A DNA stretch of 64,000 nucleotides. It comes from Alphaproteobacteria bacterium. GTDB taxonomy: Bacteria; Pseudomonadota; Alphaproteobacteria; UBA7887. The stretch lies in NCBI GenBank assembly GCA_030739735.1, contig JASLYQ010000001.1:159633-223632 (forward strand). The letters run 5' to 3'. The translations under genes and the position numbers were made by a program. The notes below the pieces were generated by a model, which was not told where the DNA came from, searched no databases, and saw nothing but the letters and a program-made list of their open reading frames with translations. Of the stretch, positions 4,163 to 60,169 are shown one piece after another. Every line of letters begins with the position of its first letter. Positions within the stretch are counted from its first letter, which is position 1.

Positions 4163-4666
4163 TCAAGCACGGTCGATCTCGTCGGAGGACAGCTTCACCC
4201 GCACCTCGCGCCCGAGCAGATGCAGCATGACAACCACGCGGTCCGTGTCACCCTCGACCTCCAGAATGCCTTCGAGAGCGCGCATCGGCCCGGATTCGAT
4301 GCGCACCTTGTCACCCGACTTCAGGCCACGGGCAAGCGTGTAGTGACCATCCTCATCGGCGCGCGCGCGCAGCGCATCAATCACCGCATCGGCTAGCGCC
4401 AACGGGCCGTCGCCGCTACCTACCAGATCGGCGACGCCATAAGTCGAGAGCACGGGGCGCCACTGCTCGCCATCGAGGTCCAGGACGACAAAGAGATAGC
4501 GCGGAAACAAAGGCCGCAGCACCTGTTCACTACGTCGGGCACGACGACGCTGCTTGCGGTAGAGCGGCAGCCAGGCCTCGAAGCCCTGGCGCTTAAGGTT
4601 CTCCAGCGCCCGCGCCTCCGCATGGAGCCTAGTGTGGACGGCATACCAGCGCTTTCCGGCGCTCAT
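4163..4666 (-). CDS. NusG-family specialised transcription antiterminator (RfaH/UpxY/LoaP-like paralog)
   Basis: 167 aa. NGN-domain start WYAVHTRLHAE. C-terminal KOW-like segment KSGDKVRIESGPMRALEGILEVEG. ATGA stop/start overlap with the upstream DUF218 gene. Confidence 0.75.
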   Translation of the reverse strand: MSAGKRWYAVHTRLHAEARALENLKRQGFEAWLPLYRKQRRRARRSEQVLRPLFPRYLFVVLDLDGEQWRPVLSTYGVADLVGSGDGPLALADAVIDALRARADEDGHYTLARGLKSGDKVRIESGPMRALEGILEVEGDTDRVVVMLHLLGREVRVKLSSDEIDRA

Positions 4667-5448
4667 GAACCAGGCTCCAAATCAGCCATGACGATGTGGC
4701 CGTTGATCAGGTACCAAAGAATGCCAAGATATTCGTGCAGGGCGGCACGGCTACCGGCCAGGCCTGCGGCACTGGGCAGATAGGGCGCTAGCACACCGAG
4801 TGGCTGTCGAGGTGATGCGTGCGGGGCCGGCGCATGGGCACTCACCGTGAGCCCCACATGGCGCAGGTTCGCCGCCATGCGCGCAACATGAACGGGCGAG
4901 GTGACGAGCACGATGTGCGTGCCGCCGAGACGCTCGGCGATGGTACGCGCTGCCGCTGCCGTCTCGGCGCTATTGCGCGCGCCAGATTCGAGCAGAACTG
5001 TCGGGTCATCAGGCCGGTCGGAACCGATCATGCCAAGTTGGCGAGCGACGCTGACAGCCTCCGTTTCCGCCTCGCCGAGTGGGCTGCCGCCGATCAGCAC
5101 CAGGGGCAGGCTGGTGCGCTCGGCCAGCGCCTGGCCGGCCACTGCGCGGCGGATGCTGGCCGACGACGGCCACCAGCCACCTTGCGAATCGGCGAAAATA
5201 CCGGCCGTCGGCACCACGATGGCCACGGCATCGCCTGGCGTTGCGACATCAAAGGACGGCGCCGCCTCGCCGAGCTGGGTCTCGAGCCAAGTCGCGACTA
5301 GTGGCACGCTGAGGCCGAGAAAGGCGAGCGTCGCACCTCCAATCAGCACCAGGCTCCAGCCGCGGTGCAACCACAGAACAAGGCCCAATAGCAGCATTGC
5401 CAGAATCGGCATAGGCAGGGTGAGCAGGGTCTCAGTCACCTCTCGCAT
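4663..5448 (-). CDS. DUF218 (ElyC/YdcF/SanA-family) membrane-anchored protein
   Basis: The six-frame ORF runs to 5865, but the credible start is the Met at 5448 (MREVTETLLTLPMPILAMLLLGLVLW, an N-terminal TM helix). The DUF218 core is present (LVLIGGSPLGEAETEAVSVARQLG…LLESGARNSAETAAAART…VLVTSPVHVARM). Confidence 0.7.
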   Translation of the reverse strand: MREVTETLLTLPMPILAMLLLGLVLWLHRGWSLVLIGGATLAFLGLSVPLVATWLETQLGEAAPSFDVATPGDAVAIVVPTAGIFADSQGGWWPSSASIRRAVAGQALAERTSLPLVLIGGSPLGEAETEAVSVARQLGMIGSDRPDDPTVLLESGARNSAETAAAARTIAERLGGTHIVLVTSPVHVARMAANLRHVGLTVSAHAPAPHASPRQPLGVLAPYLPSAAGLAGSRAALHEYLGILWYLINGHIVMADLEPGS

Positions 5449-5550
5449 TTCGAGCTTTTTCTCCCTCGGCGCCGCGTTGCAAGCTGCGGCCCGCTCCCAT
5501 ATGGTACAAGGGTCCTGACCACTCCCTGGTTCGCCCACACACTGCCAAGT

Positions 5551-7029
5551 ATGACTCAGCCGAGTGAAAATGCCGAGCCCAGCGGCAAACGCGCGAGCCT
5601 TAGCGCGCGCAAGCGGAAGGCGCTCGCCCTGGCCGAGGCGGTGGCCAGCGAGCGCACCGGTTGGATAGCCCGCAATCGGTATTTCTACGACGACCACTAC
5701 CGCTATCTGCGCTTCCTCGTGCCGGAAAGCTCGCACGTGCTCGACCTCAGCTGCGGTATTGGTGATTGCTTGGCGGCGCTGGCGCCGGAGCGCGGCGTCG
5801 GGTTCGACCTCAGCCCGGCCATGATCGAAGTAGCGCGCAAAGAGAACCCGCAGTTCGAGTATCATGTCGGCGACATCGAGTGCACTGCAGCCATCGCCGA
5901 CCTCGAAGGCCCGTTCGACGCCATTATCTTGTCAGACACCATTGGCAACCTCGAAGACATTGAGATCACCATTGAGGCCCTGCACGCGTTATGTGCCCCC
6001 GACACACGACTGATTCTCTGCTATTACTCGCGCGCTTGGCAGCCGCTACTGCGTCTGACCGAAAAGCTTGGCGAAAAGCAACAACAATTACCGCAGAATT
6101 GGCTCAGCACCGAAGATATCAGCGCCCTGTTGCAGCTTGCTGATTTCGAGGTGATCAAGCGCGAATGGCGGCAATTGCTGCCCAAGCGCTGGCTCGGTTT
6201 GGGTTATCTGATCAACCGTACTTTCGGCACGCTGCCTGTGCTGCGGCGCTTCTCACTGCGAAACTATATCGTCGCCCGCCCGCTTCCCAAGCGCACCATG
6301 CCTGCAGAGCTGCCCTCGGCGACCGTGCTCATCCCCTGCCGTAACGAGCGCGCCAATATTGCCGCCGCCATCAAGCGCATGCCACACTTCGCGCCGGAGC
6401 AGGAGATCCTCTACGTCGAAGGGCACTCCAGTGACGGCACCTGGGAGGAGATCCAGCGTGTCATCGAGACTTATCCTGACTGGACCATCCGCGCTGTGCA
6501 GCAGGACGGTAAGGGCAAGGGCGATGCCGTGCGCAAGGGATTCGACGTGGCCGCGGGTGAGGTGCTAATGATCCTCGATGCTGACCTTACCGTACCACCC
6601 GAGACGCTACCCAAGTTTTACCGCGCGCTGGTCGCCGGCAAGGGCGAATTTGTTAACGGCACGCGGCTCGTCTATCCGCTCGAGAAAGAGGCCATGCGGC
6701 GGCTCAACTTGATCGCTAACCGCACCTTCTCGCTGCTCTTCTCATGGCTGCTCAACCAACGCCTGACCGACACCCTGTGCGGCACCAAGGTGTTGACCAA
6801 AGCCCATTATCGCAAGATCGCCGCCGGGCGCGCCTATTTTGGCGAGTTCGATCCGTTCGGTGATTTTGATCTCCTCTTTGGCGCCGCACGCCTGAACCTA
6901 AAGCTGGTAGAGATTCCCATCCGCTATCAGGCGCGAACCTATGGCGAGACCCAGATCTCGCGCTTCGCTGACGGCTGGCTGCTGCTGCGCATGGTCATCT
7001 TCGCCTGGCGCAAACTGAAAGCGCTTTGA
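5551..7029 (+). CDS. bifunctional class I SAM-dependent methyltransferase / family-2 glycosyltransferase (polyprenyl-phosphate sugar synthase-like) fusion protein
   Basis: 492 aa. The N-terminal approx 240 aa carry SAM-MTase motif I (VLDLSCGIGDCLAAL). The C-terminal approx 240 aa are GT2/DPM1-like (TVLIPCRNERANI…, DAD motif in MILDADLTVPP, GTKVL). Confidence 0.8.
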   Translation: MTQPSENAEPSGKRASLSARKRKALALAEAVASERTGWIARNRYFYDDHYRYLRFLVPESSHVLDLSCGIGDCLAALAPERGVGFDLSPAMIEVARKENPQFEYHVGDIECTAAIADLEGPFDAIILSDTIGNLEDIEITIEALHALCAPDTRLILCYYSRAWQPLLRLTEKLGEKQQQLPQNWLSTEDISALLQLADFEVIKREWRQLLPKRWLGLGYLINRTFGTLPVLRRFSLRNYIVARPLPKRTMPAELPSATVLIPCRNERANIAAAIKRMPHFAPEQEILYVEGHSSDGTWEEIQRVIETYPDWTIRAVQQDGKGKGDAVRKGFDVAAGEVLMILDADLTVPPETLPKFYRALVAGKGEFVNGTRLVYPLEKEAMRRLNLIANRTFSLLFSWLLNQRLTDTLCGTKVLTKAHYRKIAAGRAYFGEFDPFGDFDLLFGAARLNLKLVEIPIRYQARTYGETQISRFADGWLLLRMVIFAWRKLKAL

Positions 7030-19136: not shown

Positions 19137-20627
19137 CTAAGTCTGTAACCGCTCGCGTAAAGCGACCTTGACCACCTTACCATAGTTGTTCTTAGGGAGC
19201 TCGTCGATAGCAAGGTAGGACTTAGGGCGCTTGAAGCGAGCAATGTTTTCCAAGCATAGCACATCCAGCGCCACGGGGTCGATGTCGACCCCCTTTTGCA
19301 TGACCACGAAGGCCACTACCTCTTCGCCCCATTCGGGATGAGGGCGCCCAACCACCGCAGCTTCGCGCACATCGGCGTGGCGCAGCAGCACTTCCTCAAC
19401 CTCACGCGGATAGATGTTGCTGCCGCCCGAAACGATCATGTCCTTTGAGCGGTCACGCAACGTCAAAAAGCCATCTTCATCGAGCACCCCGACATCGCCC
19501 GTGCGCAGCCAGCCGTCGCGCAGGGCCTCGGCTGTCGCTTCCAGATCGTTCCAGTAGCCGAGCATAACCGCAGGCCCCTTGACTTCGATCTCACCCACCT
19601 CGCCCGCCTCCAGCGCCTGGCCATCCTCGCCGGTGATGCGCAGCTCGACCGCGCTTTCCGCGAGGCCGACCGATGACAGGTACTCACGCGACTCGTGCCA
19701 GCGGCGACTCAGCGCCGTGATGGTCATGGGCGATTCAGCCTGGGCGTAGATCTGGATAAAACGCTGACCCATGACTGCGATAGCCTTCTCGATATCGGCG
19801 AGATACATTGGCCCACCGCCATAGATCACGGACTTGATGCCGTCGCCGTCCATGCCGCGCACCTTGGCCGCATCCACTAGGCGACGCACCATCGTCGGGG
19901 CCGCAAACAGCGAGACGTTGCGCAAGGTTTGGGCTAGATCCAGAACCTCGGCTGCGTCAAAGCCGCCGGACGCGGGCACGACGTGGCGGGCGCCGGCGCG
20001 CACGTTCTGAAAATTGTAGACACCGGCGCCATGCGACATGGGCGCGGCATAGAGGATAGCGTCGCTGGGCGCGATCGCCTCGACGTCCATGACATAGCAC
20101 AGCGCCTGCACGACGAGATTGCCGTGCGACAGCATAACGCCCTTTGGCCGGCCCGTGGTACCGGAGGTATAGAACAGCCAGGCGAGATCATTCTCTTTGC
20201 GTGATAACGGCCGTGGTGGTCCCTTGCCTTCCCGCATCACAGCATGCGCCGACTCGTCTACGGAAAGGACGGTGGCGTCGGTATTCAGCACAGCCGCGGT
20301 GGTAGCGTCGCAATAGACAACCTTGCAGCCCGCATTATCGAGAATCCACTCCGCCTCGCGGGGATGCAGCTTGGCATTGATTGGTACCACCGCCGCGCCC
20401 AGCCACCAGATGCCGTAAAGCACTTCGAGATACTCGATGCGGTTCTTCATGAGGACGCCTACGCGGTCACCAGAGACAACGCCGTAATCACGCGCCAGCC
20501 CACCCCCCAGCGCCGAAGCGCGACGGGCAAATTCCTGATAATCCGCCACCATCCTCTGGCCACAAAACAGTGCTGGCGCCTCTGGGCGCGTGTGGGCGGT
20601 GCGATATAACCACTCAGCTAGATTCAT
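19137..20627 (-). CDS. AMP-dependent acyl-CoA synthetase/ligase
   Basis: 496 aa. AMP-binding motif LFYTSGTTGRPKGV. C-terminal KSYLAIDELPKNNYGKV. Confidence 0.85.
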   Translation of the reverse strand: MNLAEWLYRTAHTRPEAPALFCGQRMVADYQEFARRASALGGGLARDYGVVSGDRVGVLMKNRIEYLEVLYGIWWLGAAVVPINAKLHPREAEWILDNAGCKVVYCDATTAAVLNTDATVLSVDESAHAVMREGKGPPRPLSRKENDLAWLFYTSGTTGRPKGVMLSHGNLVVQALCYVMDVEAIAPSDAILYAAPMSHGAGVYNFQNVRAGARHVVPASGGFDAAEVLDLAQTLRNVSLFAAPTMVRRLVDAAKVRGMDGDGIKSVIYGGGPMYLADIEKAIAVMGQRFIQIYAQAESPMTITALSRRWHESREYLSSVGLAESAVELRITGEDGQALEAGEVGEIEVKGPAVMLGYWNDLEATAEALRDGWLRTGDVGVLDEDGFLTLRDRSKDMIVSGGSNIYPREVEEVLLRHADVREAAVVGRPHPEWGEEVVAFVVMQKGVDIDPVALDVLCLENIARFKRPKSYLAIDELPKNNYGKVVKVALRERLQT

Positions 20628-20633
20628 AGCCGG

Positions 20634-21410
20634 CTACATGGCCGTAATGCCGCCGTCGAGCACGAATTCGGTGCCGGTCATAAACTTCGATTCATCAGAG
20701 GCCAAATAGACGATACCCCAGGCGATGTCGTCGGGCTCGCCCATATGGCCGAGAGGAATCTGGCGCTCGAGCTTGGCCTTGGTCTTGGCGGGATCGGGTG
20801 AGCCCTCGTACATGGCCTTGACCATGGGCGTGTCGATAAAGGTCGGATGCACCGAGTTGCAGCGGATGTTGTAGCCCTGGCGCGCGCAATAGAGTGCGAC
20901 AGATTTGGTCAGCAGCCGCACCGCACCCTTGCTGGCGTTGTAGGCGGCGAGGTTGTGGCCACCGATCAGCCCCGAGACAGACGAGATGTTGACGATCGAA
21001 CCACCCGCCCCGTCCTCGCGCGAGGTCTGCTTGATCGCCGCGACACCGTACTTACAACCGAGAAAAACGCCGTCTGAATTGACCGCCTGGGTGCGTGTCC
21101 AGTCCTCGAACGAGGTCTCCTCGACATTGCCCATCTCTGCGATGCCGGCGCTGTTGACCAGCACATCGAGGCGGCCATGACGGGTTAGCGCCACCTCAAC
21201 CACCGCCTGCCAGCCGGCCTCGTGGGTGACATTATGCTCGAGAAACAGAATGTCGCCGCCTATCTCCGCCGCCACCGCATGGCCCGCTTCGGCCTGGATA
21301 TCGGTAATCACTACCCGCGCACCCTCCTCTACCATGCGCTCGGCACTGCGCCTGCCGATGCCCGATGCCCCGCCCGTGATCAATGCGACCTTGCCATCCA
21401 ACCGTGCCAT
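20634..21410 (-). CDS. SDR-family oxidoreductase
   Basis: VALITGGASGIGRRSAE Rossmann motif. NISSVSG…YNASKGAV catalytic region. Confidence 0.85.
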   Translation of the reverse strand: MARLDGKVALITGGASGIGRRSAERMVEEGARVVITDIQAEAGHAVAAEIGGDILFLEHNVTHEAGWQAVVEVALTRHGRLDVLVNSAGIAEMGNVEETSFEDWTRTQAVNSDGVFLGCKYGVAAIKQTSREDGAGGSIVNISSVSGLIGGHNLAAYNASKGAVRLLTKSVALYCARQGYNIRCNSVHPTFIDTPMVKAMYEGSPDPAKTKAKLERQIPLGHMGEPDDIAWGIVYLASDESKFMTGTEFVLDGGITAM

Positions 21411-21495: not shown

Positions 21496-22392
21496 ATGAG
21501 GGACGCCGTGACCACAACACCATCAGCCGCAGACACACACCCGCGCCAGCGCGCGACGGTGCTCGATTCCGAGATCACTTATGTCGATACCGGCAAGACG
21601 GACGGCCGCCCGTTGGTGTTCCTACACGGTAATCCGACCTCGTCCTATCTCTGGCGCAATATCATTCCGCACCTGGCCGAGGGCAATCGGTGCTTGGCAC
21701 CGGATTTGATCGGCATGGGCGATTCCGGTGGCGCGTCGAACGACGACTACAGCTTTGCCACCCACGCGCGTTATCTCGATGCCTGGCTTGCAATCATGGA
21801 CCTGCGCGATACAGTCTTGGTAGTGCATGACTGGGGTTCAGCGCTGGGCTTCCACTGGGCCTATCGCAACCAGGACCGAGTCGCCGGCATCGCCTACATG
21901 GAAGCCTTGGTACGCCCGGTCCGCTGGGCCGACTGGCCCGACAGCGCACGCGAGTTCTTCCAGGCGCTGCGCTCGCCCGCAGGCGAGGAAATGGTACTGG
22001 AGAAGAACCTATTCGTGGAGGTGCTGCTGCCGCGCGCAATATTGCGCGGGCTGACGGATGCTGAGATGGCGCACTACCGCAAGCGCTACACGCAGCCCGG
22101 CGAGTCGCGCCGCCCGACGCTGACTTGGCCGCGCCAGATCCCTATCAATGGCGAGCCGGCAGACGTGGTGGCCATCGCCGAAGCCTATTCAGCGTGGATG
22201 GCGGCAAGCGACCTGCCCAAGCTTTTCATAAATGCCGAGCCCGGCAGCATCCTCGTCGGCGAGCAACGCGAGTTCTGTCGCGCCTGGCCCAACCAGACCG
22301 AGATCACGGTGCCTGGGCTGCATTTCATCCAGGAGGACTCGCCTGATCAGATCGGCGAGGCGGTGAGCGACTTCGTAGCGCACCTCGGCTAA
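21496..22392 (+). CDS. haloalkane dehalogenase, HLD-II subfamily (LinB/DhaA/DmbA-like)
   Basis: 298 aa. LVFLHGNPTSSYLWRNIIPH (halide-stabilising Asn-Trp), nucleophile HDWGSALG, GLHFIQEDSPD catalytic His. By my recollection of those sequences, it is near-collinear with LinB/DhaA over the cap and core domains. Confidence 0.9.
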   Translation: MRDAVTTTPSAADTHPRQRATVLDSEITYVDTGKTDGRPLVFLHGNPTSSYLWRNIIPHLAEGNRCLAPDLIGMGDSGGASNDDYSFATHARYLDAWLAIMDLRDTVLVVHDWGSALGFHWAYRNQDRVAGIAYMEALVRPVRWADWPDSAREFFQALRSPAGEEMVLEKNLFVEVLLPRAILRGLTDAEMAHYRKRYTQPGESRRPTLTWPRQIPINGEPADVVAIAEAYSAWMAASDLPKLFINAEPGSILVGEQREFCRAWPNQTEITVPGLHFIQEDSPDQIGEAVSDFVAHLG

Positions 22393-22782
22393 GGCGTTGC
22401 ACGAGACTGGCTGTTTTTCTCATCTTCGGCCAATACAAGTCTTTGACTATTAAACAAAAATCTGTACCTAGCTTATTTCGTAATTCCCGGTGCCACACGT
22501 TCGGTGACCAGGAGATAGACTCCGGCGAACAGAGAATTCACTGACTGGCACCTAGCCCCTCGTCCGGCAAATGAAGGGGCACGCGGAGAAACGGAGGATT
22601 CGCGTTTGACGGATTTGATGAGGGATGCCAGTCAACGGCGGTACCGATCAGACGCAATACCTTCGCGCTGCCACGAGGGAGGGCGCCGGAAGACGCCGAA
22701 TGTGATCGCCGGAATCGCAAATGGTACTCGCCCTTGCAAAGCGCCCGCGGCCCTGCCCACAATGTGCCACGGGAGGGCGATT

Positions 22783-23091
22783 ATGCGTAGTCATCATGAT
22801 ATGGGCGGTGAGCCGGCCGGGCCAGTCGAGATCACCGAGGACGACTACGACGTCTGGGAGAAGCGCATCGACGCGCTGCTTTCCTTGCTCATCCAGGAAG
22901 AGAAGATCATGCGCGTCGACGAGCTGCGCCGCGGCATCGAGGCACTGGCGCCAAATGCCTATGCGTCTTTGAGCTATTACGAGCGCTGGATTGCCTCCAT
23001 CGCCGCTATTCTCGTCGAAAAAGACGTGCTGGGTCAGGACGAGGTCGACGCGCGCGTGGCTGTAGTGGCGGCGCGGGAGGGCGAAGCATGA
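22783..23091 (+). CDS. nitrile hydratase-like beta subunit, N-terminal half encoded as a separate polypeptide (ScnB/ToyK/L-like)
   Basis: 102 aa from the ATG at 22783, preceded by a GGGAGGG RBS (the six-frame ORF extends upstream to 22606). MRSHHDMGGEP…WEKRIDAL…YYERWIASIA aligns with the NHase beta N-domain (YDVGG…WEK…YYWHWI). The stop overlaps the next start (ATGA). Confidence 0.75.
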   Translation: MRSHHDMGGEPAGPVEITEDDYDVWEKRIDALLSLLIQEEKIMRVDELRRGIEALAPNAYASLSYYERWIASIAAILVEKDVLGQDEVDARVAVVAAREGEA

Positions 23092-23387
23092 GTCGCTTTG
23101 CCGTCAGCGAGCGCGTACAGGTCGCCTTCCACGACCCGCCCGATACCCCGCGCAAGCCGCATCTGCGCACGCCCTGGTACGTGCGTGGCAAAAGCGGTGA
23201 GATCGAGCGCATCTGCGGCGAATTCCGCAATCCCGAAGGCCTGGCCTATGGTGAGGACGGCCTGCCCAAGCAGACACTGTATCGCGTACGGTTCTCCCAA
23301 TCCCATCTCTGGCCAGATTATGCGGGCCCGGCTCACGACTGCGTCGAGGTCGAGATCTACGAGCATTGGTTGGAGCGGACGTCATGA
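23088..23387 (+). CDS. nitrile hydratase-like beta subunit, C-terminal half as a separate polypeptide (ScnA/ToyL/K-like)
   Basis: 99 aa. WYVRGKSGEIERI…LYRVRFSQSHLW…DCVEVEIYEHWLE aligns with the NHase beta C-domain (YVRGKTGTV…LYTVRF…ELW). ATGA overlaps on both sides. Confidence 0.75.
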   Translation: MSRFAVSERVQVAFHDPPDTPRKPHLRTPWYVRGKSGEIERICGEFRNPEGLAYGEDGLPKQTLYRVRFSQSHLWPDYAGPAHDCVEVEIYEHWLERTS

Positions 23388-24007
23388 GCGACGAAGTCAG
23401 GCACCGTCACGGTGTCCACGATCCTCATTACCGCCACCTCGCGATCGCGGTGCACGAACTGCTTGTCGAGAAAGGCGTGCTGAGTGAGGATCGAATTGAC
23501 CGCCAGATCGTGCGCATGGATGCACGTAGCCCGGCCGATGGTGCTCGCATGGTGGCCCGTGCCTGGACCGACCAGGCGTATCGCGCCCGCATGCTCGCTG
23601 ACGGTAGCGCCGCGGCCGAGGAAATCGGTCTCGTCGTCGACGGTACCCTGTTGGTGACAGTCGAAAATACGGACGCGGTGCACAATCTTTTCGTCTGCAC
23701 ACTTTGCTCCTGCTATCCGCGCTCGATTCTCGGCTTACCGCCGACCTGGTACAAGGCGCCGGAATACCGCAGACGGGTGGTGCGTGAGCCGCGCAAGGTG
23801 CTGGCCGAGTTCGGCGTCAGCGTGGCGGATGACGTCGAGCTGCGGGTGCACGATTCCACCGCCGATATGCGCTATATTGTACTGCCACGCCGACCCGACG
23901 GCACCGAGGGCTGGAGTGAGGACGCGCTTGCCAAGCTTGTGACCCGGGACAGCATGATCGGCGTTGGTCTGCCTTTGTCGCCGGAGACCGCACAAGCGGC
24001 AGAGTAG
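23384..24007 (+). CDS. nitrile hydratase-like alpha subunit, cobalt type (VCTLCSCY metal-binding motif)
   Basis: 207 aa from the ATG overlapping the upstream stop. Matches NHase alpha: AWTDQAYRARMLADG, NLFVCTLCSCYP…LGLPPTWYK, EYRRRVVREPRKVL, LVTRDSMIGV. The Thr and Tyr in the Cys cluster are the Co-type signature. Confidence 0.85.
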   Translation: MSDEVRHRHGVHDPHYRHLAIAVHELLVEKGVLSEDRIDRQIVRMDARSPADGARMVARAWTDQAYRARMLADGSAAAEEIGLVVDGTLLVTVENTDAVHNLFVCTLCSCYPRSILGLPPTWYKAPEYRRRVVREPRKVLAEFGVSVADDVELRVHDSTADMRYIVLPRRPDGTEGWSEDALAKLVTRDSMIGVGLPLSPETAQAAE

Positions 24008-24016
24008 GGCACAAGC

Positions 24017-24637
24017 ATGCTCAAGGTTTGGGGGCGGCGCAACTCGTCCAACGTACAGAAGGTGCTGTGGTTTTGCGACGAGGCGGCGCTACGCTTCAAA
24101 CACGAGGAGATCGGCGGCGAGTTCGGCCGTACCGCCGATGCCGACATGCTGGCGCGCAATCCCAATGCCCGCGTCCCCACCATTGAAGATGATGGTTTCG
24201 TGTTGTGGGAGAGCAACGCCATCCTGCGCTATCTCGGAGCAAAATATGCCTCCGGTGCCATGTTTCCGACCGAGCTCAAGGCCCGGGGCGATGCGGACCG
24301 CTGGATGGACTGGCAGCAATCTACGGTACTAGCACCGCTGACCACCATCTTCTGGGGTCGGGTGCGAACGCCCGAGGCCTACACTGAAGAGCAGATCGCG
24401 CAAGCCGAAACGGCGGCCGTGCAGCTCTGGAAGATTCTCGATACCCGCCTCAAGGGACGTGACTGGATCATGGGCGATACATTTACCATTGCCGACATAC
24501 CGCTCGCCATCCTCGCCTGGCGTTGGTTTTCGCTGGCCAAGGAACCGCCTACCATGGCGGCGCTTGACGCCTGGTTCGTGCGTATCCGTGCGCGTCCCGC
24601 ATTTGAGGCCCGCGTCTCCAGCATACCGCTCACCTGA
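24017..24637 (+). CDS. glutathione S-transferase family protein
   Basis: 206 aa starting 9 nt after the NHase alpha stop. Thioredoxin-like N-domain (KVWGRRNSSNVQKVLW…RVPTIEDDGFVLWESNAILRYL) and helical C-domain. Confidence 0.8.
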   Translation: MLKVWGRRNSSNVQKVLWFCDEAALRFKHEEIGGEFGRTADADMLARNPNARVPTIEDDGFVLWESNAILRYLGAKYASGAMFPTELKARGDADRWMDWQQSTVLAPLTTIFWGRVRTPEAYTEEQIAQAETAAVQLWKILDTRLKGRDWIMGDTFTIADIPLAILAWRWFSLAKEPPTMAALDAWFVRIRARPAFEARVSSIPLT

Positions 24638-24678
24638 TAGCGTGGACAGACACCGTAGCTTGCGGCAGAGTTCTCCCT

Positions 24679-26358
24679 ATGCATGACTTGGTAATTAAAA
24701 ATACCGTCATTTACGACGGCAGTGGCGAAGCGCCGCAACATGCCGCGCTCGCCGTTAGCGAGGGCCGTATCGCGGAAATCGGTAGTGATGTTGGAGCCGG
24801 CCGCGAGGTTGTCGATGCGGAAGGCTTGGCGCTGGCGCCGGGTATCATCGACACCCACACCCATTACGACGCACAGGTCACCTGGGACCCCTGGCTAGAC
24901 CCCTCCTCACGTCTCGGCGTGACCACGGTGGTGATGGGCAATTGCGGCTTTACCGTAGCGCCCTGCAAGCCGCAGCACCGTGCGGCCACCGCACGCAATT
25001 TATGTAACGTAGAAGGCATGTCGATCGAGGCCTTGCGCGAGGGCATGCGCTGGGAGTTCGAGAGCTTTGGCAACTATCTAGATCATTTGGAGAGCCGTGG
25101 CGTTGGCCTCAATGTTGCGTGCTTTGCAGGCCATTCCTCGATTCGCACCTGGGTGATGGGCGACGACGCTACCGAGCGCGCGGCCACTGCGGACGAGATT
25201 GCGGCCATGGCAGACCTGGTGCGCGAGGCGATGGCAGCCGGCGCTATCGGCTTCGCTACCTCGACTTTCGAGGGCCACAACGGCGCCGGTGGCGTGCCCA
25301 TGCCCTCGCGGCTGGCAAAACAGGACGAGTTGCAAGCGCTCGTCGTCGCCATGGCCGAGGGCGACCGCGGCACCTTCATGCTCACGCGCGGCTCAGGCTC
25401 GCGGCTCAGCTTTCTCGAATCCCTTGCCGAAATGGCGCGGCGGCCGGTAATCGTCGCAGCGCTACTGCACAATCCTTTGAACGACCAGACAACGACGCGC
25501 GCAATGCAAAAGATCGCCGAGGCCAACAGCCGCGGGCGCGAGCTTTACGGCCAGGTCTCCTGCTGCCCGCTGACTTTGGATTTCACCTTGTACAACCCGT
25601 ACATGATGGAGGCGTTCGACTCCTGGAAGCCAATCATGGAAGCGGAGCCGGAAGACCTGCCACGCCTGTATCGCGACCCGGAGCTACGCGCCGCCGTGAA
25701 AGCCGAGATCGCCGAGCCGGGAAAAATAACCGCGTTCACCGGGGACTGGAGCGGCATCAAGGTCGCCGAGGTCGCGAACCCCGCCAACCGCGACAAGGAG
25801 GGTCGCGATACTGCCGACCTGGCAGCGGAGGCGGGCGTCGATCCACTCGACTGGATTCTCGACTTCGGTCTCAGCGAGGACATGAAAACGACCTTCGCCT
25901 CGGTGCTCTTAAACGCCGATAGCCAAGCGGTGGGTAAGCTGCTCAGCGACCCCTACAGCACGATCGCCTTGTCGGACGCCGGCGCACATCTCACCTTCTT
26001 TTGCGACGCCGGCTTCGGGCTGAATCTCTACGGCAGCTGGGTGCGCGAGCGTGGTCTGTTTTCGTTGGAGCGCGCAATCTACGAGATGACCGGCCGCCAG
26101 GCGGACATCTACCGTATTCGCGGCCGCGGGCGCCTCAGGCCCGGCGCTTGGGCCGACATGATGCTGTTCGACCCGACGACCGTAGCGCGGTCGCCCAACC
26201 TCCGCGTCCACGACCTGCCGGCCGGCGCCAGCCGCCTGGTCTATGATGCCAAGGGCCTGCACGGCGTCTGGGTCAATGGCAGCCACATTGCCGATGCTGG
26301 GGGCCTCATCACCAACGGCGCGTTGCCCGGCATGGTAATCCGTAAGTTCGATAGCTAA
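24679..26358 (+). CDS. N-acyl-D-amino-acid deacylase-family amidohydrolase (Amidohydro_3)
   Basis: 559 aa. Metal-binding GIIDTHTHYD…VTTVVMGNCG, characteristic of D-aminoacylase-type amidohydrolases. Confidence 0.8.
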   Translation: MHDLVIKNTVIYDGSGEAPQHAALAVSEGRIAEIGSDVGAGREVVDAEGLALAPGIIDTHTHYDAQVTWDPWLDPSSRLGVTTVVMGNCGFTVAPCKPQHRAATARNLCNVEGMSIEALREGMRWEFESFGNYLDHLESRGVGLNVACFAGHSSIRTWVMGDDATERAATADEIAAMADLVREAMAAGAIGFATSTFEGHNGAGGVPMPSRLAKQDELQALVVAMAEGDRGTFMLTRGSGSRLSFLESLAEMARRPVIVAALLHNPLNDQTTTRAMQKIAEANSRGRELYGQVSCCPLTLDFTLYNPYMMEAFDSWKPIMEAEPEDLPRLYRDPELRAAVKAEIAEPGKITAFTGDWSGIKVAEVANPANRDKEGRDTADLAAEAGVDPLDWILDFGLSEDMKTTFASVLLNADSQAVGKLLSDPYSTIALSDAGAHLTFFCDAGFGLNLYGSWVRERGLFSLERAIYEMTGRQADIYRIRGRGRLRPGAWADMMLFDPTTVARSPNLRVHDLPAGASRLVYDAKGLHGVWVNGSHIADAGGLITNGALPGMVIRKFDS

Positions 26359-47946: not shown

Positions 47947-49719
47947 TCAGTTGAAGTGTAGCGCTGCCGGGGGTAGGTGGTCGGCGTCAAGGCAGCACCA
48001 ATCGGCGACTTCAATGCCAAGGTCGGCGAACAGTGGACGCAGAATGGCAACGCGGCGAAAGGGGGCATTGCCGAGGGCGTCGCTGTCACCGGCGCGGCTG
48101 CGCGCGGCAAGCCCCTCTATCGCGGCCTTGAGCGTGGCGAAGTCGTCGGCCATGGCGACAGTCGCGGCGCCCTCGCCAGTGATGTTCCAGGACAGACTGA
48201 CGGAAAGCCAGGCATCGCCCGCGGCGGAGCGCGCGCCAAGGCCACTCACAGTGTCGCGCAGGGCAAAGGTCGCCCGCCAGTTTTCGCCGTCGCGGCGCAA
48301 ATTTCTGTCCTCGACGGCCAGGCCGGCAGGCGCCGCGGAATCGGAGCGCAGCCGCGCAACGCTGCCACTGCCATCGCCGCGCAAACGCCCGCGCAGCACC
48401 AGGCTACCGTCAGCAAAAGGCTCGCAAGTGAAGCCGAACTCGTCGCCGTCGGCGCGCACCGCGCACGGTGTCACCACCTCGCGGACCACTGTGGCGCCGT
48501 CGCGCAGGCGCGCATCGAGGCGCTGGATATCCACCAGGGCCATGAAGTTACCCAGCCCGGCAATGGTCTGGCTCACCCAGAAGGGCTCGACAGACGGCAT
48601 GCCGGCAAAGGACGCCGGCACTCCCCAAACGCTCTCTGGCCGCCGCTCATAGAGCGGCTCGTAGGTATCGTCGAATTGCAGCAGAGCGGGCGTGACCAGC
48701 GCCCTGAGCTCAGCGAGATCCATCTCGCCGTCCACGCGGCCAGTGCCGTAGCCGGCTTCTGCAAATGGGTCGTAGTCCGCGAGATCTGCGCTAGCGAGGG
48801 CGGCCCCTGCAGGGAAGCGTGCCTGCCAGCCCGCCACGACAGAGGCGGCGAAACGGTCGCGCGCGCCGTCGCCCGCCTCGGCAAGCTGGTAACCGCTGGT
48901 TAGACGGTAACGCAGCGCCGCCACCAGACCGTCGCGCCGGCACCCCACCGCATCCTCCGAGGCCTCGCACGCCTGTTGCCAAGCCGCCTGATAGGCGACG
49001 AAATAATTGGCGCGATTTGTCGACTCGTCAAAGGATTCGGGAATGTCGAATGGCACCGTGGCATCGATACCGTAGAAACGCTCGCTGGTATGGCGCAGCA
49101 ACGCCGCCACCTTAATGTTCGTATTGCTCTCGGCCCAGGGGCGGTCGGCATAGATCAGCGCATGGTTATGGTGGCAGGCGAGGCAGAGCCCGCGGTCAAC
49201 ATAGCCCACCGTGGGGTTACCGCCTTCACGGTAATCGCTGATGACCTGATAATCGAAGCGCCCGGCGGCCTCATTGTAGCTGATCGCCTCGACCGAGTTG
49301 GTGCGCGGCTGATAGCCGAGATAGAGCCTGTCCTTCATCATCAGACCCGATTCCCCCGCGGTGGGCGCCGGCTCTGTATCGACGGCACCGACCGCCCGCG
49401 GGTAGCGGAAGAAGTCCGGCTCAGCCTCGTGGCGGTGCAGAGAGCGGCCGATCGGGTGCAGTACCCGCTTTATGGGCTCCCGGAATCCGGGTCCAAGCCG
49501 CGCGGCGATGCGCTCGATTAACGCCTCAAAGGGATAGGGTGCGACGATCTGCCAATCGCCATCGACCTCCTCGGCCAGTACGAAGTCGAGCAGCGAGCGC
49601 CCGACCGGCGGCAGGTCCGGTCCGCGATTAGCTTCCGAGGTTAGCGCTTCGGGCTCGGCCAGTACCGGCGCCACAAAGGTTAGTACCAAGAGTATTGGGA
49701 AAAGTTGTCGCATCACCAC
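47947..49719 (-). CDS. exported hypothetical protein with a single CXXCH haem-c-type motif
   Basis: 590 aa. N-terminal signal peptide MVMRQLFPILLVLTFVAPVLAEP. CLACHH at about residue 186. No other family recognised. Confidence 0.6.
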   Translation of the reverse strand: MVMRQLFPILLVLTFVAPVLAEPEALTSEANRGPDLPPVGRSLLDFVLAEEVDGDWQIVAPYPFEALIERIAARLGPGFREPIKRVLHPIGRSLHRHEAEPDFFRYPRAVGAVDTEPAPTAGESGLMMKDRLYLGYQPRTNSVEAISYNEAAGRFDYQVISDYREGGNPTVGYVDRGLCLACHHNHALIYADRPWAESNTNIKVAALLRHTSERFYGIDATVPFDIPESFDESTNRANYFVAYQAAWQQACEASEDAVGCRRDGLVAALRYRLTSGYQLAEAGDGARDRFAASVVAGWQARFPAGAALASADLADYDPFAEAGYGTGRVDGEMDLAELRALVTPALLQFDDTYEPLYERRPESVWGVPASFAGMPSVEPFWVSQTIAGLGNFMALVDIQRLDARLRDGATVVREVVTPCAVRADGDEFGFTCEPFADGSLVLRGRLRGDGSGSVARLRSDSAAPAGLAVEDRNLRRDGENWRATFALRDTVSGLGARSAAGDAWLSVSLSWNITGEGAATVAMADDFATLKAAIEGLAARSRAGDSDALGNAPFRRVAILRPLFADLGIEVADWCCLDADHLPPAALHFN

Positions 49720-50008: not shown

Positions 50009-50095
50009 GCCCCTGTGGTGGAATTGGTAGACACGACAGACTCAAAATCTGTTGTCCGCAAGGACGTGTCGGTTCGAGTCCGACTGGGGGCACCA
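50009..50095 (+). tRNA. tRNA-Leu (anticodon CAA)
   Basis: 87 nt. Acceptor stem GCCCCTG/TGGGGGC, D-arm GTGGAATTGGTAGAC, anticodon loop CT-CAA-AA, long variable arm (type II), T-arm GGTTCGAGTCC, encoded CCA. Confidence 0.85.
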
Positions 50096-53907: not shown

Positions 53908-54450
53908 TCAGTTAGGCTCTGGCCAGTATAGCAGGAAGCCGTCACGGTTCGGCATCTTCACACCAGGCAGGCTATCGGCATCCATGACCTGGCCGTCCTT
54001 GATGATGCCGTTCAAGCTCAACAGGTATGCCGTGACCGCATAGACATCGTCATTGCTGAGCGACATCGGCCGATCATAGGGCATGGCACGGCGCACGTAG
54101 TCAAAAATAGTGGTGGCATAGGGCCAGTAGCTGGCTATGGTTTTCACCGGCTTGTCGCCGGCTAGAGAATCGATGCCACCGGCAAGTGCATCAGCAAATT
54201 TCTCGCCGCCCCTGGCGCCCCCGCCATGGCAGCGCCTGCAGTGCTGATGGTAGACGTGAGCGCCGCGTTCGGCATCACCCCTACCGGGCGGCAAGGTGGC
54301 ACCGTCGGGCGCGATGCTGATATCCCATTTAGCGACCTCTTCCGCCGATACCGGCTCGCCCAGCTCTGGACCGGGCTCAGCGAGAACGGGACTGGCAACA
54401 AGCAGGACCACGGCCAAGGTCGAAAGCGTGCAACGATCAAATATAGACAT
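53908..54450 (-). CDS. monohaem cytochrome c, sulfite dehydrogenase partner subunit (SorB/SoxD-like)
   Basis: Start at MSIFDRCTLSTLAVVLLVASPVLA (signal peptide), overlapping the sorA-like stop by 14 nt. Single CRRCH haem site. Confidence 0.7.
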   Translation of the reverse strand: MSIFDRCTLSTLAVVLLVASPVLAEPGPELGEPVSAEEVAKWDISIAPDGATLPPGRGDAERGAHVYHQHCRRCHGGGARGGEKFADALAGGIDSLAGDKPVKTIASYWPYATTIFDYVRRAMPYDRPMSLSNDDVYAVTAYLLSLNGIIKDGQVMDADSLPGVKMPNRDGFLLYWPEPN

Positions 54451-55735
54451 TGCTGACCTCCCCGTTGCTTGCAATGCCCCAGGTTTGGATGGCGTTGCAG
54501 TGGTAGAGATGGCCTGCCGCATACTGCTCGGACCACACTTCGCGTCGTAGCTGGGTGTTACCTTTCTCGTCGGTCGCGCGGCTTTGCACGACAGCTGGCG
54601 CGCCGTCCCAACTCCAGGGCAGGCGGAAACGCGTCAGCGCCATCGGCTGCACCGGCCCGTCCAGCGCCGCCTCCGCCCAGCTCTTGCCGCCGTCGGCCGA
54701 GACCTCGACGCGGGCGATTCGGCCGTGGCCTGACCAAGCGAGGCCCGAGATCTGATAGAGCCCCGCGCCGCGCATCGTCAGACCCGTTGCCGGGCGTGTG
54801 ATGGTTGATTTCACATCCATGCGGAAAGTGAACTGGCGCGCCATGCCGTCGGGCATCAGGTCGGAATATTTCGAGGTCTCGTCCTTTGTGTGAGTTGGTC
54901 CCTCGGTGACCTTGATGCGGCGCAGCCACTTGACCGACATATTACCTTCGTAGCCCGGCAACACGAGGCGCATGGGGTAGCCGTTCTCGGGGCGTAGGCG
55001 CTCGCCGTTCTGATACAAAGCCACGATGGCGTCGTCGAGTGCCTTTTCCATGGGAATGCTACGGCTCATGGCGGCGGAATCAGCCCCCTCGGCAAGAATC
55101 CACTTGCCGCGCGGATCCAATCCAGCTTCATCGAGTAGGATCGAGAGCGGGATACCCGTCCACTCGGCACCGGAGATGAGACCGTGGATCATACCTACCG
55201 GCACCTGCATGGGCTCGGAGAACAGGTTGCTGTTGAAGAAACTATTGCCAGCGCACTCGATAAATAGAAGTCGGCTAGCCATCGGATAGCGCAGCAGCGC
55301 CTCTATGTCGAACTTAAGCGGCTGCACCACCAGACCATGGATCAAAAACTCATGCCTCTCCGAATCGATGATGGGTCGGCCGTTGTGGCTGCGCTCGAAA
55401 TGCAGACCGTTGGGTGTGATGGTGCCTTCAAGGTTCTGCAGTGGCGTCATGCCGACACCAGCGCCGGGCGCCAGATCGCCATAGGGCTGAAGCACGGTGC
55501 GAGCTGTCTCCCGTTCGGCGCGAGCAGGATCACCGTAGGGCCGAAACGTGATGCCCGGCACGGTCATCCAGCTCGGCGCTTCATCGCCGATGGATTCCGC
55601 GGCTACAGCCGCACCGGGCAGGGCCGCCGCAGCCACCGCACTGCCAGCGAGAAAGGCGCGCCGGTGCAGCAGACCACCGCTCGCGACTGGCTCGCCGAGC
55701 GCCTCGGCGGCGGGCACAGTGTTCTTCTTTGACAT
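54437..55735 (-). CDS. Tat-exported molybdopterin oxidoreductase of the sulfite-oxidase family (SorA/SoxC-like sulfite dehydrogenase catalytic subunit)
   Basis: 432 aa. Twin-arginine signal HRRAFLAGSAVAAAALPGAAVA. Moco domain (ECAGNS…). C-terminal Mo-co dimerisation domain. Strong RBS GAAGGAGGAG. Confidence 0.8.
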   Translation of the reverse strand: MSKKNTVPAAEALGEPVASGGLLHRRAFLAGSAVAAAALPGAAVAAESIGDEAPSWMTVPGITFRPYGDPARAERETARTVLQPYGDLAPGAGVGMTPLQNLEGTITPNGLHFERSHNGRPIIDSERHEFLIHGLVVQPLKFDIEALLRYPMASRLLFIECAGNSFFNSNLFSEPMQVPVGMIHGLISGAEWTGIPLSILLDEAGLDPRGKWILAEGADSAAMSRSIPMEKALDDAIVALYQNGERLRPENGYPMRLVLPGYEGNMSVKWLRRIKVTEGPTHTKDETSKYSDLMPDGMARQFTFRMDVKSTITRPATGLTMRGAGLYQISGLAWSGHGRIARVEVSADGGKSWAEAALDGPVQPMALTRFRLPWSWDGAPAVVQSRATDEKGNTQLRREVWSEQYAAGHLYHCNAIQTWGIASNGEVSNVYI

Positions 55736-55749
55736 CGGTTCTCCTCCTT

Positions 55750-57837: not shown

Positions 57838-57922
57838 AAGGATCCCCTACGTACCTGTCGCCCGCAATGGCAGTGGCCGTTGCATAGCAAAGATGGGTGG
57901 GCACGCAAAGCGCCGTTTTCCC

Positions 57923-59959: not shown

Positions 59960-60169
59960 GGGGCCCGGGACGGATACGGCTTTGCTGTGCCCTTGTCGAG
60001 AGTTAAGCCGGTGCAAGGATCGGCTGAGCGAGAATCCACAGGCTCAGGACCGAGTATGCGACCATCAGCAGCAGCAGTGGCAATTGCGCGAGATTGCGCG
60101 CGCCCCGAGGTGGGAAGAACGCCGGGTTGTCACGCCTAGAACCTAGGACCCGGCCAACCGATATCGTCG

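Follow-up and report, generated by a model that had tools for sequence, protein, structure and literature searches.

Do a haloalkane dehalogenase (HLD), a nitrile hydratase (NHase), a glutathione S-transferase (GST) and an amidohydrolase (AH3), encoded side by side in the genome of a marine alphaproteobacterium, form one dedicated pathway for halogenated nitriles? A sequence-only reading of the 64-kb stretch of DNA analyzed here (the window) had proposed such a four-enzyme module. We recomputed the ORF boundaries and gaps from HLD to AH3 and found them identical to those of that reading. Its gene identities and positions are confirmed, with exact ORF matches and matches to family models (Table 1), NF002938 and TIGR01323 above their cut-offs. 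All genes from HLD through AH3 are co-oriented and closely spaced, with 9 nt between the alpha stop and the GST start and 41 nt between GST and AH3. In the Pfam annotation of the neighborhood, a beta-oxidation-type gene set (acyl-CoA synthetase, MaoC, FadB-like and thiolase genes) lies 5' of the locus.

Table 1. Features of the HLD-NHase locus (positions in the window)
Feature	Position	Strand	Evidence or remark
Acyl-CoA synthetase	19137..20627	-	PF00501/PF13193; context only
SDR, classical, alcohol-dehydrogenase-like	20634..21410	-	adh_short_C2, 205 bits; divergent from HLD
Haloalkane dehalogenase (HLD), HLD-II, LinB-type	21496..22392	+	NF002938 equivalog
Intergenic spacer, 390 nt	22393..22782	.	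between HLD and beta-N
46-nt conserved block, directly 5' of beta-N	22731..22776	+	blastn match to L011
NHase beta N-terminal half (beta-N; AnhD-like), 102 aa	22783..23091	+	PF21006
NHase beta C-terminal SH3-like half (beta-C; AnhE-like), 99 aa	23088..23387	+	PF02211
NHase alpha, Co-type, 207 aa	23384..24007	+	PF02979, TIGR01323
GstB-like glutathione S-transferase (GST)	24017..24637	+	GST_N + GST_C
D-aminoacylase-family amidohydrolase (AH3, Amidohydro_3), 559 aa	24679..26358	+	PF07969

The dehalogenase and its oldest partner

The dehalogenase scores 424.8 bits against NF002938 (cut-off 241), 397 bits against 7pw1 and 368 bits against LinB (1iz7). As in LinB/DmbA-type HLD-IIs, its catalytic pentad is complete, and the alignment shows conservation of the motifs HGNPTSSYLW, HDWGS, YMEA and HFIQED. 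The divergent SDR, whose translation shows the motifs TGGASGIG and YNASK, is paired with the HLD in every member of the HLD-NHase clade described below, and the pair also occurs without any NHase in the related locus L174 (SDR 81%, HLD 69%). Among the conserved partners of the HLD, the SDR is the oldest. Clusters of HLD and alcohol dehydrogenase are a known haloalkane-catabolic arrangement (Rhodococcus dhaA-adhA-aldA). The window resembles them in the alcohol-dehydrogenase-like SDR that adjoins the HLD, but differs in that the Pfam annotation shows no aldehyde dehydrogenase within 10 kb on either side of the locus and no regulator gene near the HLD.

Conservation of the HLD-NHase pairing

The divergent SDR-HLD pair followed by beta-N, beta-C and alpha is present in all members of one clade of alpha subunits (60-100% identical), three further members of which were recovered by searching from the HLD side. 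The arrangement is missing from about 70 other loci of the alpha tree, and the split NHase trio has unrelated neighbors in about 70 other genomes. HLD-NHase is the only pairing of the proposed module that is kept in relatives, and it persists despite different flanks between lineages. The upstream beta-oxidation-type block is likewise kept in L171 and L172, and acyl-CoA/beta-oxidation genes border the HLD-NHase block in the window, L171, L172 and L024. We found no description of an NHase downstream of an HLD in 12 papers mentioning both enzymes.

The interval between HLD and beta-N differs among relatives. In five lineages it measures 1-118 nt: L016 has a single nucleotide, L172 has 39 nt, L171 has 63 nt, and L024 and L029 have approximately 105-115 nt. 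Other lineages have spacers of 390-745 nt or an inserted gene with an Oxidoreduct_C or a caspase/FGE-sulfatase domain. These inserted genes and long spacers imply that strict co-transcription is not required. Moreover, the linkage has a single evolutionary origin in one clade and could thus be inherited synteny without shared function. A functional link between HLD and NHase is plausible.

The 390-nt interval of the window had been taken as a leader. It matches no Rfam family, its minimum free energy of folding has a z-score of -1.16, and conservation in L011, the 87% relative, is limited to its final 46 nt, which led us to regard it as a plain intergenic spacer with no demonstrable leader or riboswitch. 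It holds no consensus promoter or terminator and no demonstrable hidden ORF, and no trace is left in it of the Oxidoreduct_C gene that relatives carry between HLD and NHase. In the blastn alignment, the terminal block is identical to L011 at 38 of 46 positions and the rest of the spacer is unalignable; the block shows no clear conservation in relatives more distant than L011. It carries TTGCAA-18 nt-CACAAT together with GGGAGG as Shine-Dalgarno sequence, and is a candidate promoter or operator of the NHase genes' own.

Such a promoter would suit a locus of chance neighbors, in which the SDR-HLD pair works with the beta-oxidation genes (haloalkane to alcohol, carbonyl, acid and acyl-CoA) and the NHase genes, with or without GST and AH3, form a separate operon transcribed from the 46-nt block. 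The SDR-HLD pair conserved without NHase, its likeness to known haloalkane clusters, the 390- and 745-nt spacers and whole genes inserted before beta-N, and the unrelated surroundings of the trio in other genomes all agree with it. Yet the HLD/beta-N junction shrinks to 1 nt in L016 and to 39-118 nt in four other lineages, the adjacency outlasts changes of flanks, and no aldehyde dehydrogenase occurs within 10 kb on either side. We consider mere chance proximity rather unlikely.

GST and amidohydrolase are recent neighbors

The GST scores 173 bits against 6nv6 and is 36% identical to Escherichia coli GstB from end to end (E = 4e-39). GstB has been reported to dehalogenate bromoacetate. Next to an NHase, the gene occurs solely in the window, in L011 and in the P0016 contig; it is confined to relatives with alpha subunits at least 86% identical and missing from all those below about 85%. 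The GST is a lineage-specific insert between alpha and AH3.

AH3 scores 104 bits against PF07969 and 137 bits against the D-aminoacylase 1m7j, to which it aligns at the HxH and GNCG ligands, and is a putative amide-hydrolyzing step. In this respect the locus resembles NHase-amidase nitrile operons, where the NHase is followed by a hydrolase that can convert amide to acid. It differs from them in that its hydrolase is a D-aminoacylase-family metallo-amidohydrolase rather than a signature or nitrilase-superfamily amidase, and its linkage to the NHase is not conserved. AH3 is missing beside the NHase in six clade members (L011, L016, L024, L029, L172 and L173) and separated from it by an opposite-strand gene in L171. 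None of its 79 non-self homologs elsewhere has an NHase within the fetched flank of at most 5 kb. The tight packing of GST and AH3 3' of alpha could mean functional integration here even if the two are dispensable elsewhere.

GST and AH3 are recent, dispensable neighbors of the NHase in the window lineage, where they probably share a transcript with the NHase genes. A single halo-nitrile operon, in which HLD and/or GST take the halide, the NHase hydrates the nitrile and AH3 hydrolyzes the amide, is hard to reconcile with this distribution, and equally with the variable inserts between HLD and NHase, the SDR-HLD pair lacking an NHase and a literature search that returned no such cluster. The same holds for its variant, where haloacetonitrile passes through haloacetamide and haloacetate to a glutathione conjugate, the last step being catalyzed by a GstB-type GST. 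Gene orientation and spacing, the HLD-NHase adjacency kept across the clade, the similarity of the GST to GstB and the recruitment of AH3 beside split NHases twice independently (it adjoins the NHase independently in L072/L076/L083) are in its favor, as is the hydrolysis of the omega-halo-nitrile 4-bromobutanenitrile by HLDs including LinB (PMC3938430). We judge it improbable; the evidence does not support four enzymes dedicated to a halo-nitrile pathway. What survives of the proposed module is the same-strand adjacency of HLD and NHase, found in all clade members; the expected retention of the GST fails outside the closest relatives, and AH3 is patchy in the clade.

A three-subunit nitrile hydratase without activator

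Both junctions of the NHase trio are ATGA stop/start overlaps. beta-N matches positions 1-102 of the 115-position PF21006 model (76 bits), and its VDELRRGIE and YYERWIA are invariant among relatives. beta-C (60 bits against PF02211) corresponds in alignment to residues 129-217 of beta from the P. putida Co-NHase, including the motif H-x-R-x-P-x-Y-x-R-G-K. The alpha subunit carries VCTLCSC and scores 263 bits against PF02979. The beta subunit is split, and never fused, in all 79 nearest species-level genomes carrying both halves. L066 is the sole locus here with alpha between the two beta genes (beta-C, alpha, beta-N).

The trio can hardly be of the thiocyanate hydrolase (SCNase) type or another non-nitrile hydratase: it shares three-gene order (scnB-scnA-scnC), subunit sizes and subunit homology with SCNase (PDB 2dd4), its beta halves match SCNase beta and alpha chains about as well as NHase beta, and all alphas of its family read CSCYPR where the canonical Co-NHase aligned with them (P. 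thermophila, 4ob1) has CSCYPW, but alpha passes TIGR01323 (257.7 bits, cut-off 249.85) and fails the SCNase model TIGR03887 (206.5 bits, cut-off 291.45), is closer to 4ob1 (227 bits) than to SCNase gamma (165 bits), and those three-subunit relatives that have been characterized are genuine nitrile hydratases (PMC7329996).

As proposed earlier, the window lacks an activator gene. HMMs of beta-N and beta-C, run over all six frames of the 64 kb, match only those two genes. Pfam annotation of genes within 10 kb on either side and of larger ORFs elsewhere in the window turned up neither an accessory or COG0523 protein nor a cobalt transporter or aldoxime dehydratase; small ORFs beyond 10 kb were screened with the two HMMs alone. 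Related loci have no conserved fourth gene 3' of the trio. This absence had been read as a departure from the norm, but it is not anomalous, since three-subunit Co-NHases without activator are already published (PMC7329996, PMC11573777) and the split beta is universal among the relatives. The NHase belongs to this type.

By architecture, it is most readily likened to AnhD-AnhE-AnhA of S. canus CGMCC 13662 (PMC7329996), with which it shares the split beta, the order beta-N/beta-C/alpha, the cobalt type and the lack of an activator. The S. canus enzyme comes from an actinomycete instead of a proteobacterium, and an upstream HLD and downstream GST and AH3, features of the window, are not reported for it. 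Its beta-N acts as a chaperone (PMC7329996). By analogy with AnhD, the window NHase would mature without a separate activator, beta-N serving as chaperone. The toyocamycin NHase ToyJKL of Streptomyces rimosus is similar in architecture (three subunits, cobalt type, no activator); as cited in PMC7329996 and PMC9204691, its alpha alone can self-mature, and it acts on a nucleoside within a deazapurine antibiotic biosynthetic cluster, a context that the window lacks. The plasmid-borne three-subunit NHase of Microvirga flocculans (PMC11573777) is alphaproteobacterial and, as here, has a pair of beta genes and lacks an activator, but its alpha lies between the beta genes. Classical two-subunit Co-NHases (P. 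putida alpha-beta-P14K; R. rhodochrous J1 beta-alpha-NhlE), to whose structures the window alpha scores approximately 200-215 bits, share VCTLCSC and the conserved beta arginines; they have CSCYPW, a single beta polypeptide and then an activator gene.

A proposed locus of three layers

We favor, with moderate confidence, a locus of three layers of differing age that would convert organohalogens and nitriles, in which the four-enzyme route is not a conserved unit. The old layer would be the divergent alcohol-dehydrogenase-like SDR and the HLD-II. The second would be the Co-NHase trio, translationally coupled through its ATGA overlaps and inherited directly 3' of the HLD in one marine alphaproteobacterial clade. 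The third and recent layer, dispensable, would be the GstB-like GST and AH3 added behind alpha. Together they would turn small aliphatic organohalogens and nitriles into alcohols, carbonyls and amides and, with AH3 present, the amides into acids, and the products would feed the acyl-CoA synthetase and beta-oxidation genes next to the block. HLD and NHase may share one omega-halo-nitrile or hydroxy-nitrile skeleton, and their pairing offers a testable clue to the natural substrates of both enzymes.

Gene content of the dehalogenase and nitrile hydratase block

ORF mapping and translation reproduced exactly the gene coordinates and spacings of the sequence-only reading, which had grouped a haloalkane dehalogenase (HLD), a nitrile hydratase (NHase), a glutathione S-transferase (GST) and an amidohydrolase into one halo-nitrile catabolic module with a missing activator gene. 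The NHase is encoded by three genes, two for the halves of the beta subunit (beta-N and beta-C) and one for alpha, and both of their junctions are ATGA stop/start overlaps. The G+C content is even throughout the block. Upstream of HLD, the opposite strand encodes a classical short-chain dehydrogenase (SDR) and an acyl-CoA synthetase, and it also carries genes of beta-oxidation type.

Features of the HLD-NHase block and of other parts of the window
Feature	Position	Strand	Evidence or remark
SDR gene	20634-21410	-	divergent from HLD
HLD	21496-22392	+	ORF map and translation
Intergenic spacer HLD/beta-N	22393-22782		390 nt
NHase beta-N	22783-23091	+	PF21006 (NHase_beta_N), 76 bits
NHase beta-C	23088-23387	+	PF02211 (NHase_beta_C), 60 bits
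NHase alpha	23384-24007	+	PF02979 (NHase_alpha), 263 bits
GST	24017-24637	+	starts 9 nt past alpha stop
Amidohydrolase AH3	24679-26358	+	559 aa; 41 nt beyond GST
590-aa ORF	47947-49719	-	no Pfam match at E <= 1e-5
tRNA gene	50009-50092		only one in the window; 590-aa ORF lies just before it
Sulfite-oxidase-type molybdoenzyme, cytochrome c, two large Fer4_5 proteins (one also FMN_bind)	53908-60016	-	unconnected with the block

The HLD passes the curated model NF002938 (424.8 bits, cut-off 241) and aligns over its full length with LinB (1iz7). The catalytic pentad of HLD-II enzymes consists of Asp-His-Glu and the halide-binding Asn and Trp, and its motifs (HGNPTSSYLW, HDWGS, YMEA and HFIQED) are intact. 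The neighboring SDR retains the NAD(P)-binding TGGASGIG and YNASK motifs, which rules out a halohydrin dehalogenase. Haloalkane catabolic clusters, such as dhaA-adhA-aldA of Rhodococcus, combine HLD with an alcohol and an aldehyde dehydrogenase; the window shares the alcohol-oxidising enzyme adjoining HLD but has neither an aldehyde dehydrogenase nor a dedicated regulator within +/-10 kb.

With 257.7 bits on the curated model TIGR01323 (cut-off 249.85), alpha qualifies as an NHase alpha subunit, and it carries the metal-binding motif VCTLCSC of the cobalt type, as indicated by the Thr of C-T-L-C-S-C. It is closer to solved Co-NHases (227 bits) than to the gamma subunit of thiocyanate hydrolase (165 bits), and fails the curated model of the latter enzyme (TIGR03887, 206.5 bits versus a cut-off of 291.45). 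The beta halves are strongly diverged, with about 40 bits to any solved beta subunit, and keep the arginine-containing motifs. In beta-N, VDELRRGIE aligns with DEYRHGIE of 4fm4_B, and R49 and R50 are invariant in nine relatives; in beta-C, HLRTPWYVRGK aligns with HTRMPRYTRGK of 3qxe_B. Two conserved beta arginines hydrogen-bond the oxidised cysteines of NHases, and the alignments, read with this structural knowledge, indicate that both are present. We also observed that every alpha subunit of the split-beta family reads CSCYPR (window 23720-23732), where the aligned canonical Co-NHase of known structure (4ob1) has CSCYPW; this stretch adjoining the metal site is a possible family signature.

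Loci identical to the block occur in marine metagenomes, including one Tara Oceans scaffold, and in metagenome-assembled genomes (MAGs) of Alphaproteobacteria. Public annotations name a haloalkane dehalogenase, a nitrile hydratase subunit alpha, a GST family protein and an amidohydrolase family protein. HLD (MDP6012098) and alpha (MDP6012099) have consecutive accessions in one NCBI MAG, and the gene list of one NCBI locus (L003, 9009-10001) is empty between them. The genes corresponding to beta-N and beta-C (window 22783-23387) therefore seem to be uncalled there. Both seem to be left out of some public MAG annotations, perhaps because they were taken for one frameshifted beta gene.

A three-subunit nitrile hydratase without activator gene

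We ran an alpha-subunit scan with one genome per species and examined the best 80 loci (L011-L090), together with four distinct relatives fetched earlier. The two beta halves are in separate ORFs in all 75 of the best 80 loci that carry both, as well as in the four relatives (79 split, none fused; for example L021:7341-8561 and L034:7276-8570, in the order beta-N, beta-C, alpha). The hosts of these 79 loci, mostly one per species, include the cultured Rhodobacterales Cognatishimia, Yoonia, Roseovarius and Marimonas, and many Burkholderiales MAGs. Since all related loci are split, the separate, overlapping ORFs that match PF21006 and PF02211 in the window are no frameshift artefact, and the ATGA overlaps likewise speak against a pseudogene.

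Two variants of the arrangement were seen. Several Rhodobacterales-like loci (L054:7156-7662, L071:6465-6959 and L079:7102-7662) have a Cupin_2 gene between beta-N and beta-C, one of the encoded proteins with a faint DMSP_lyase-family match. Two others (L030:6967-7628 and L069:7137-7703) have two tandem ORFs before beta-C, each of which scores as NHase_beta_N, and the additional one may be an activator-like paralog.

The activator gene is indeed absent from the 64-kb window. HMMs of beta-N and beta-C, built from the sequences of relatives and run on six-frame segments, found no second beta-N- or beta-C-like ORF beyond the two genes. Annotation with Pfam, which covered the genes in the +/-10 kb around the block and the larger ORFs in the remainder of the window, turned up neither an accessory protein nor a COG0523 protein, and no cobalt transporter or aldoxime dehydratase either. 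Beta-N itself matches the accessory-protein model TIGR03889 weakly, with only 15.9 bits. The genes past alpha differ among relatives (lipid A acyltransferase, EamA, OYE, porin), and therefore the wider family has no conserved fourth gene at this place.

The sequence-only reading had treated the missing activator as an oddity. It is instead a known property of three-subunit NHases, given the published cases and the split in 79 of 79 loci. In Streptomyces canus, the genes are ordered anhD (beta N-half), anhE (beta C-half) and anhA (alpha), the genome is without any activator, AnhD acts as both metallochaperone and self-subunit-swapping chaperone, and alpha can take up cobalt directly when conditions are reducing (PMC7329996). 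Other three-subunit NHases without activator are encoded on a Microvirga plasmid (PMC11573777) and, according to a work cited in PMC7329996, in the case of the toyocamycin NHase. The window NHase shares with AnhD-AnhE-AnhA the gene order, the split beta and the lack of an activator. Matched on this described architecture, and with absence covering the 64-kb window, it is of the published three-subunit, activator-free type. By likeness to AnhD, beta-N is a putative chaperone. The literature on these enzymes calls the three-subunit organization unusual, whereas it is the rule among the nearest 79 proteobacterial genomes; its dominance there therefore seems under-appreciated.

Conservation of the dehalogenase next to the nitrile hydratase

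We mapped neighboring genes on a simple neighbor-joining tree of alpha, built without support values. SDR and HLD are present in every member of the clade containing the window (window, L011, L007, L009/L010, L016, L024 and L029; alpha identity 60-100%), and in none of the approximately 70 other sequences of the tree. HLD-centered look-ups added three loci to the clade (L171, L172 and L173; HLD identity 71-76%), and in each of them the NHase trio lies downstream. The divergent SDR-HLD pair is found in all clade members and also, without NHase, in L174 (SDR 81%, HLD 69%); the HLDs of L175 and L176 lie in unrelated contexts. A literature search for an HLD-NHase gene cluster found no description, and the papers naming both enzymes concern no cluster.

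The distance from HLD to beta-N is 1 nt in L016, 39 nt in L172, 63 nt in L171, about 105-115 nt in L024 and L029, 390 nt in the window and 745 nt in L011. An Oxidoreduct_C gene is inserted in L007-L010 and L173, and a caspase/FGE-sulfatase-domain gene in the P0016 contig, a relative with 86% identity. From these distances, the tight order looks ancestral and the 390-nt spacer of the window derived. The otherwise syntenic L171 has a SMODS nucleotidyltransferase gene (CBASS-type defence) and a 167-aa ORF between the MaoC gene and SDR (4617-6003).

The spacer had been read as a leader of the NHase genes, and this was not borne out. It contains no Rfam family (only chance matches with E up to 10), no significant structure (folding z-score -1.16) and only weak inverted repeats, which rules out a riboswitch or structured leader. 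A remnant of the Oxidoreduct_C gene of relatives is dismissed by the lack of any tblastn signal. A hidden activator or small ORF is also rejected, as the beta-N and beta-C HMMs match nothing there and the gap is unconserved except for its last 46 nt. These are shared with L011 and not clearly conserved beyond it; they contain TTGCAA-18 nt-CACAAT and GGGAGG, and may be an own promoter of the NHase genes. A scan for consensus promoters and terminators gave nothing informative between the genes.

Variable genes downstream of the nitrile hydratase

The GST has both GST domains and aligns end to end with Escherichia coli GstB (36% identity over 206 aa, E = 4e-39), which reportedly is active on bromoacetate; the window GST scores below the cut-off of every NCBIfam GST model. 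A literature search on PDB entry 6nv6 found nothing. GST is restricted to three loci, those of the window, of L011 and of the P0016 contig.

AH3 matches PF07969 above cut-off and is a probable member of the D-aminoacylase branch of Amidohydro_3; the family of this 559-aa protein is very large. D-aminoacylases bind metal through HxH, Cys, His and His, together with a catalytic Asp. The DTHTHYD and GNCG motifs of AH3 (HxH and Cys ligands) align with 1m7j; the middle 250 residues, where the other ligands would lie, did not align. A reading of AH3 as an N-substituted formamide deformylase-like enzyme, on an isonitrile route, is set aside since the best alignments are with D-aminoacylases.

Downstream of NHase, AH3 occurs in the window itself, in L007-L010 and on the P0016 contig. 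In L171 it lies beyond an opposite-strand glutamine-synthetase-like gene, and it is absent beside NHase in six clade loci (L011, L016, L024, L029, L172 and L173). In L009 (8644-10803) and L010 (6596-8300) it is in pieces in different frames, reflecting either a decaying gene or long-read assembly errors. A metagenome scan centered on AH3 found NHase within the available flank (up to 5 kb) of none of 79 non-self homologs with 41-59% identity. In an unrelated alpha clade, AH3 directly follows alpha in L072, L076 and L083. These linked proteins share 46-49% identity with the window AH3, versus 57-66% for non-linked homologs, which points to a second, independent recruitment; only two independent adjacencies are known. 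In L076 (5474-10294) and L083 (5441-10300), two D-aminoacylase-family paralogs flank the NHase trio, the upstream one on the minus strand with 35-36% identity to the window AH3 and the directly downstream one with 48-49%. An NHase-amidase operon for a nitrile-to-acid route would call for an amide hydrolase that is conserved beside NHase across relatives, and AH3 is not conserved in this way.

Possible function of the block

Of the proposed module, the HLD-NHase adjacency persists throughout the clade; GST is confined to three loci and AH3 is patchy. Our results favour three layers: an old SDR/HLD pair; a three-subunit Co-NHase, presumably self-maturing, whose conserved position right behind HLD is specific to the clade; and GST and AH3 as recent add-ons, dispensable in relatives. 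Both add-ons are probably co-transcribed with NHase in the window organism. A functional link between HLD and NHase is plausible because their junctions are tight, their adjacency has outlasted changes in the flanks, and HLDs including LinB turn over 4-bromobutanenitrile (PMC3938430); the adjacency goes back to one evolutionary origin and could also be inherited synteny. Several lineages repeatedly have genes for acyl-CoA synthetase, acyl-CoA dehydrogenase, MaoC, FadB-like protein and thiolase near the block, which suggests that its products are aliphatic acids passed to beta-oxidation.

Each enzyme is a further member of a known family, in an ordinary catabolic neighborhood with one mildly interesting and testable association. 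A complete four-enzyme halo-nitrile pathway is improbable in the window lineage, and it is not a conserved unit. We consider it similarly doubtful that the conserved HLD-beta-N/beta-C/alpha operon is a pathway devoted to halogenated nitriles of natural origin, extended to the halo-acid or acid by GST and AH3 in the window lineage. In such a route, HLD and NHase of this pelagic alphaproteobacterial clade would act on the same molecule, for example an omega-bromoalkyl nitrile or a haloacetonitrile, and the GstB-like GST and D-aminoacylase-family amidase would form the extension. If true, it would provide a first physiological substrate class for a marine HLD-II enzyme and for the widespread, functionally orphan three-subunit NHases.

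The three-gene NHase appears to be skipped by some public annotations, which is relevant to enzyme mining because its heterologous expression would need no activator. The retention of HLD before NHase across a whole marine clade bears on the natural substrates of HLDs and on the physiological role of bacterial NHases, and it offers a concrete and cheap hypothesis, namely that halo- or hydroxy-nitriles may be their shared substrates.
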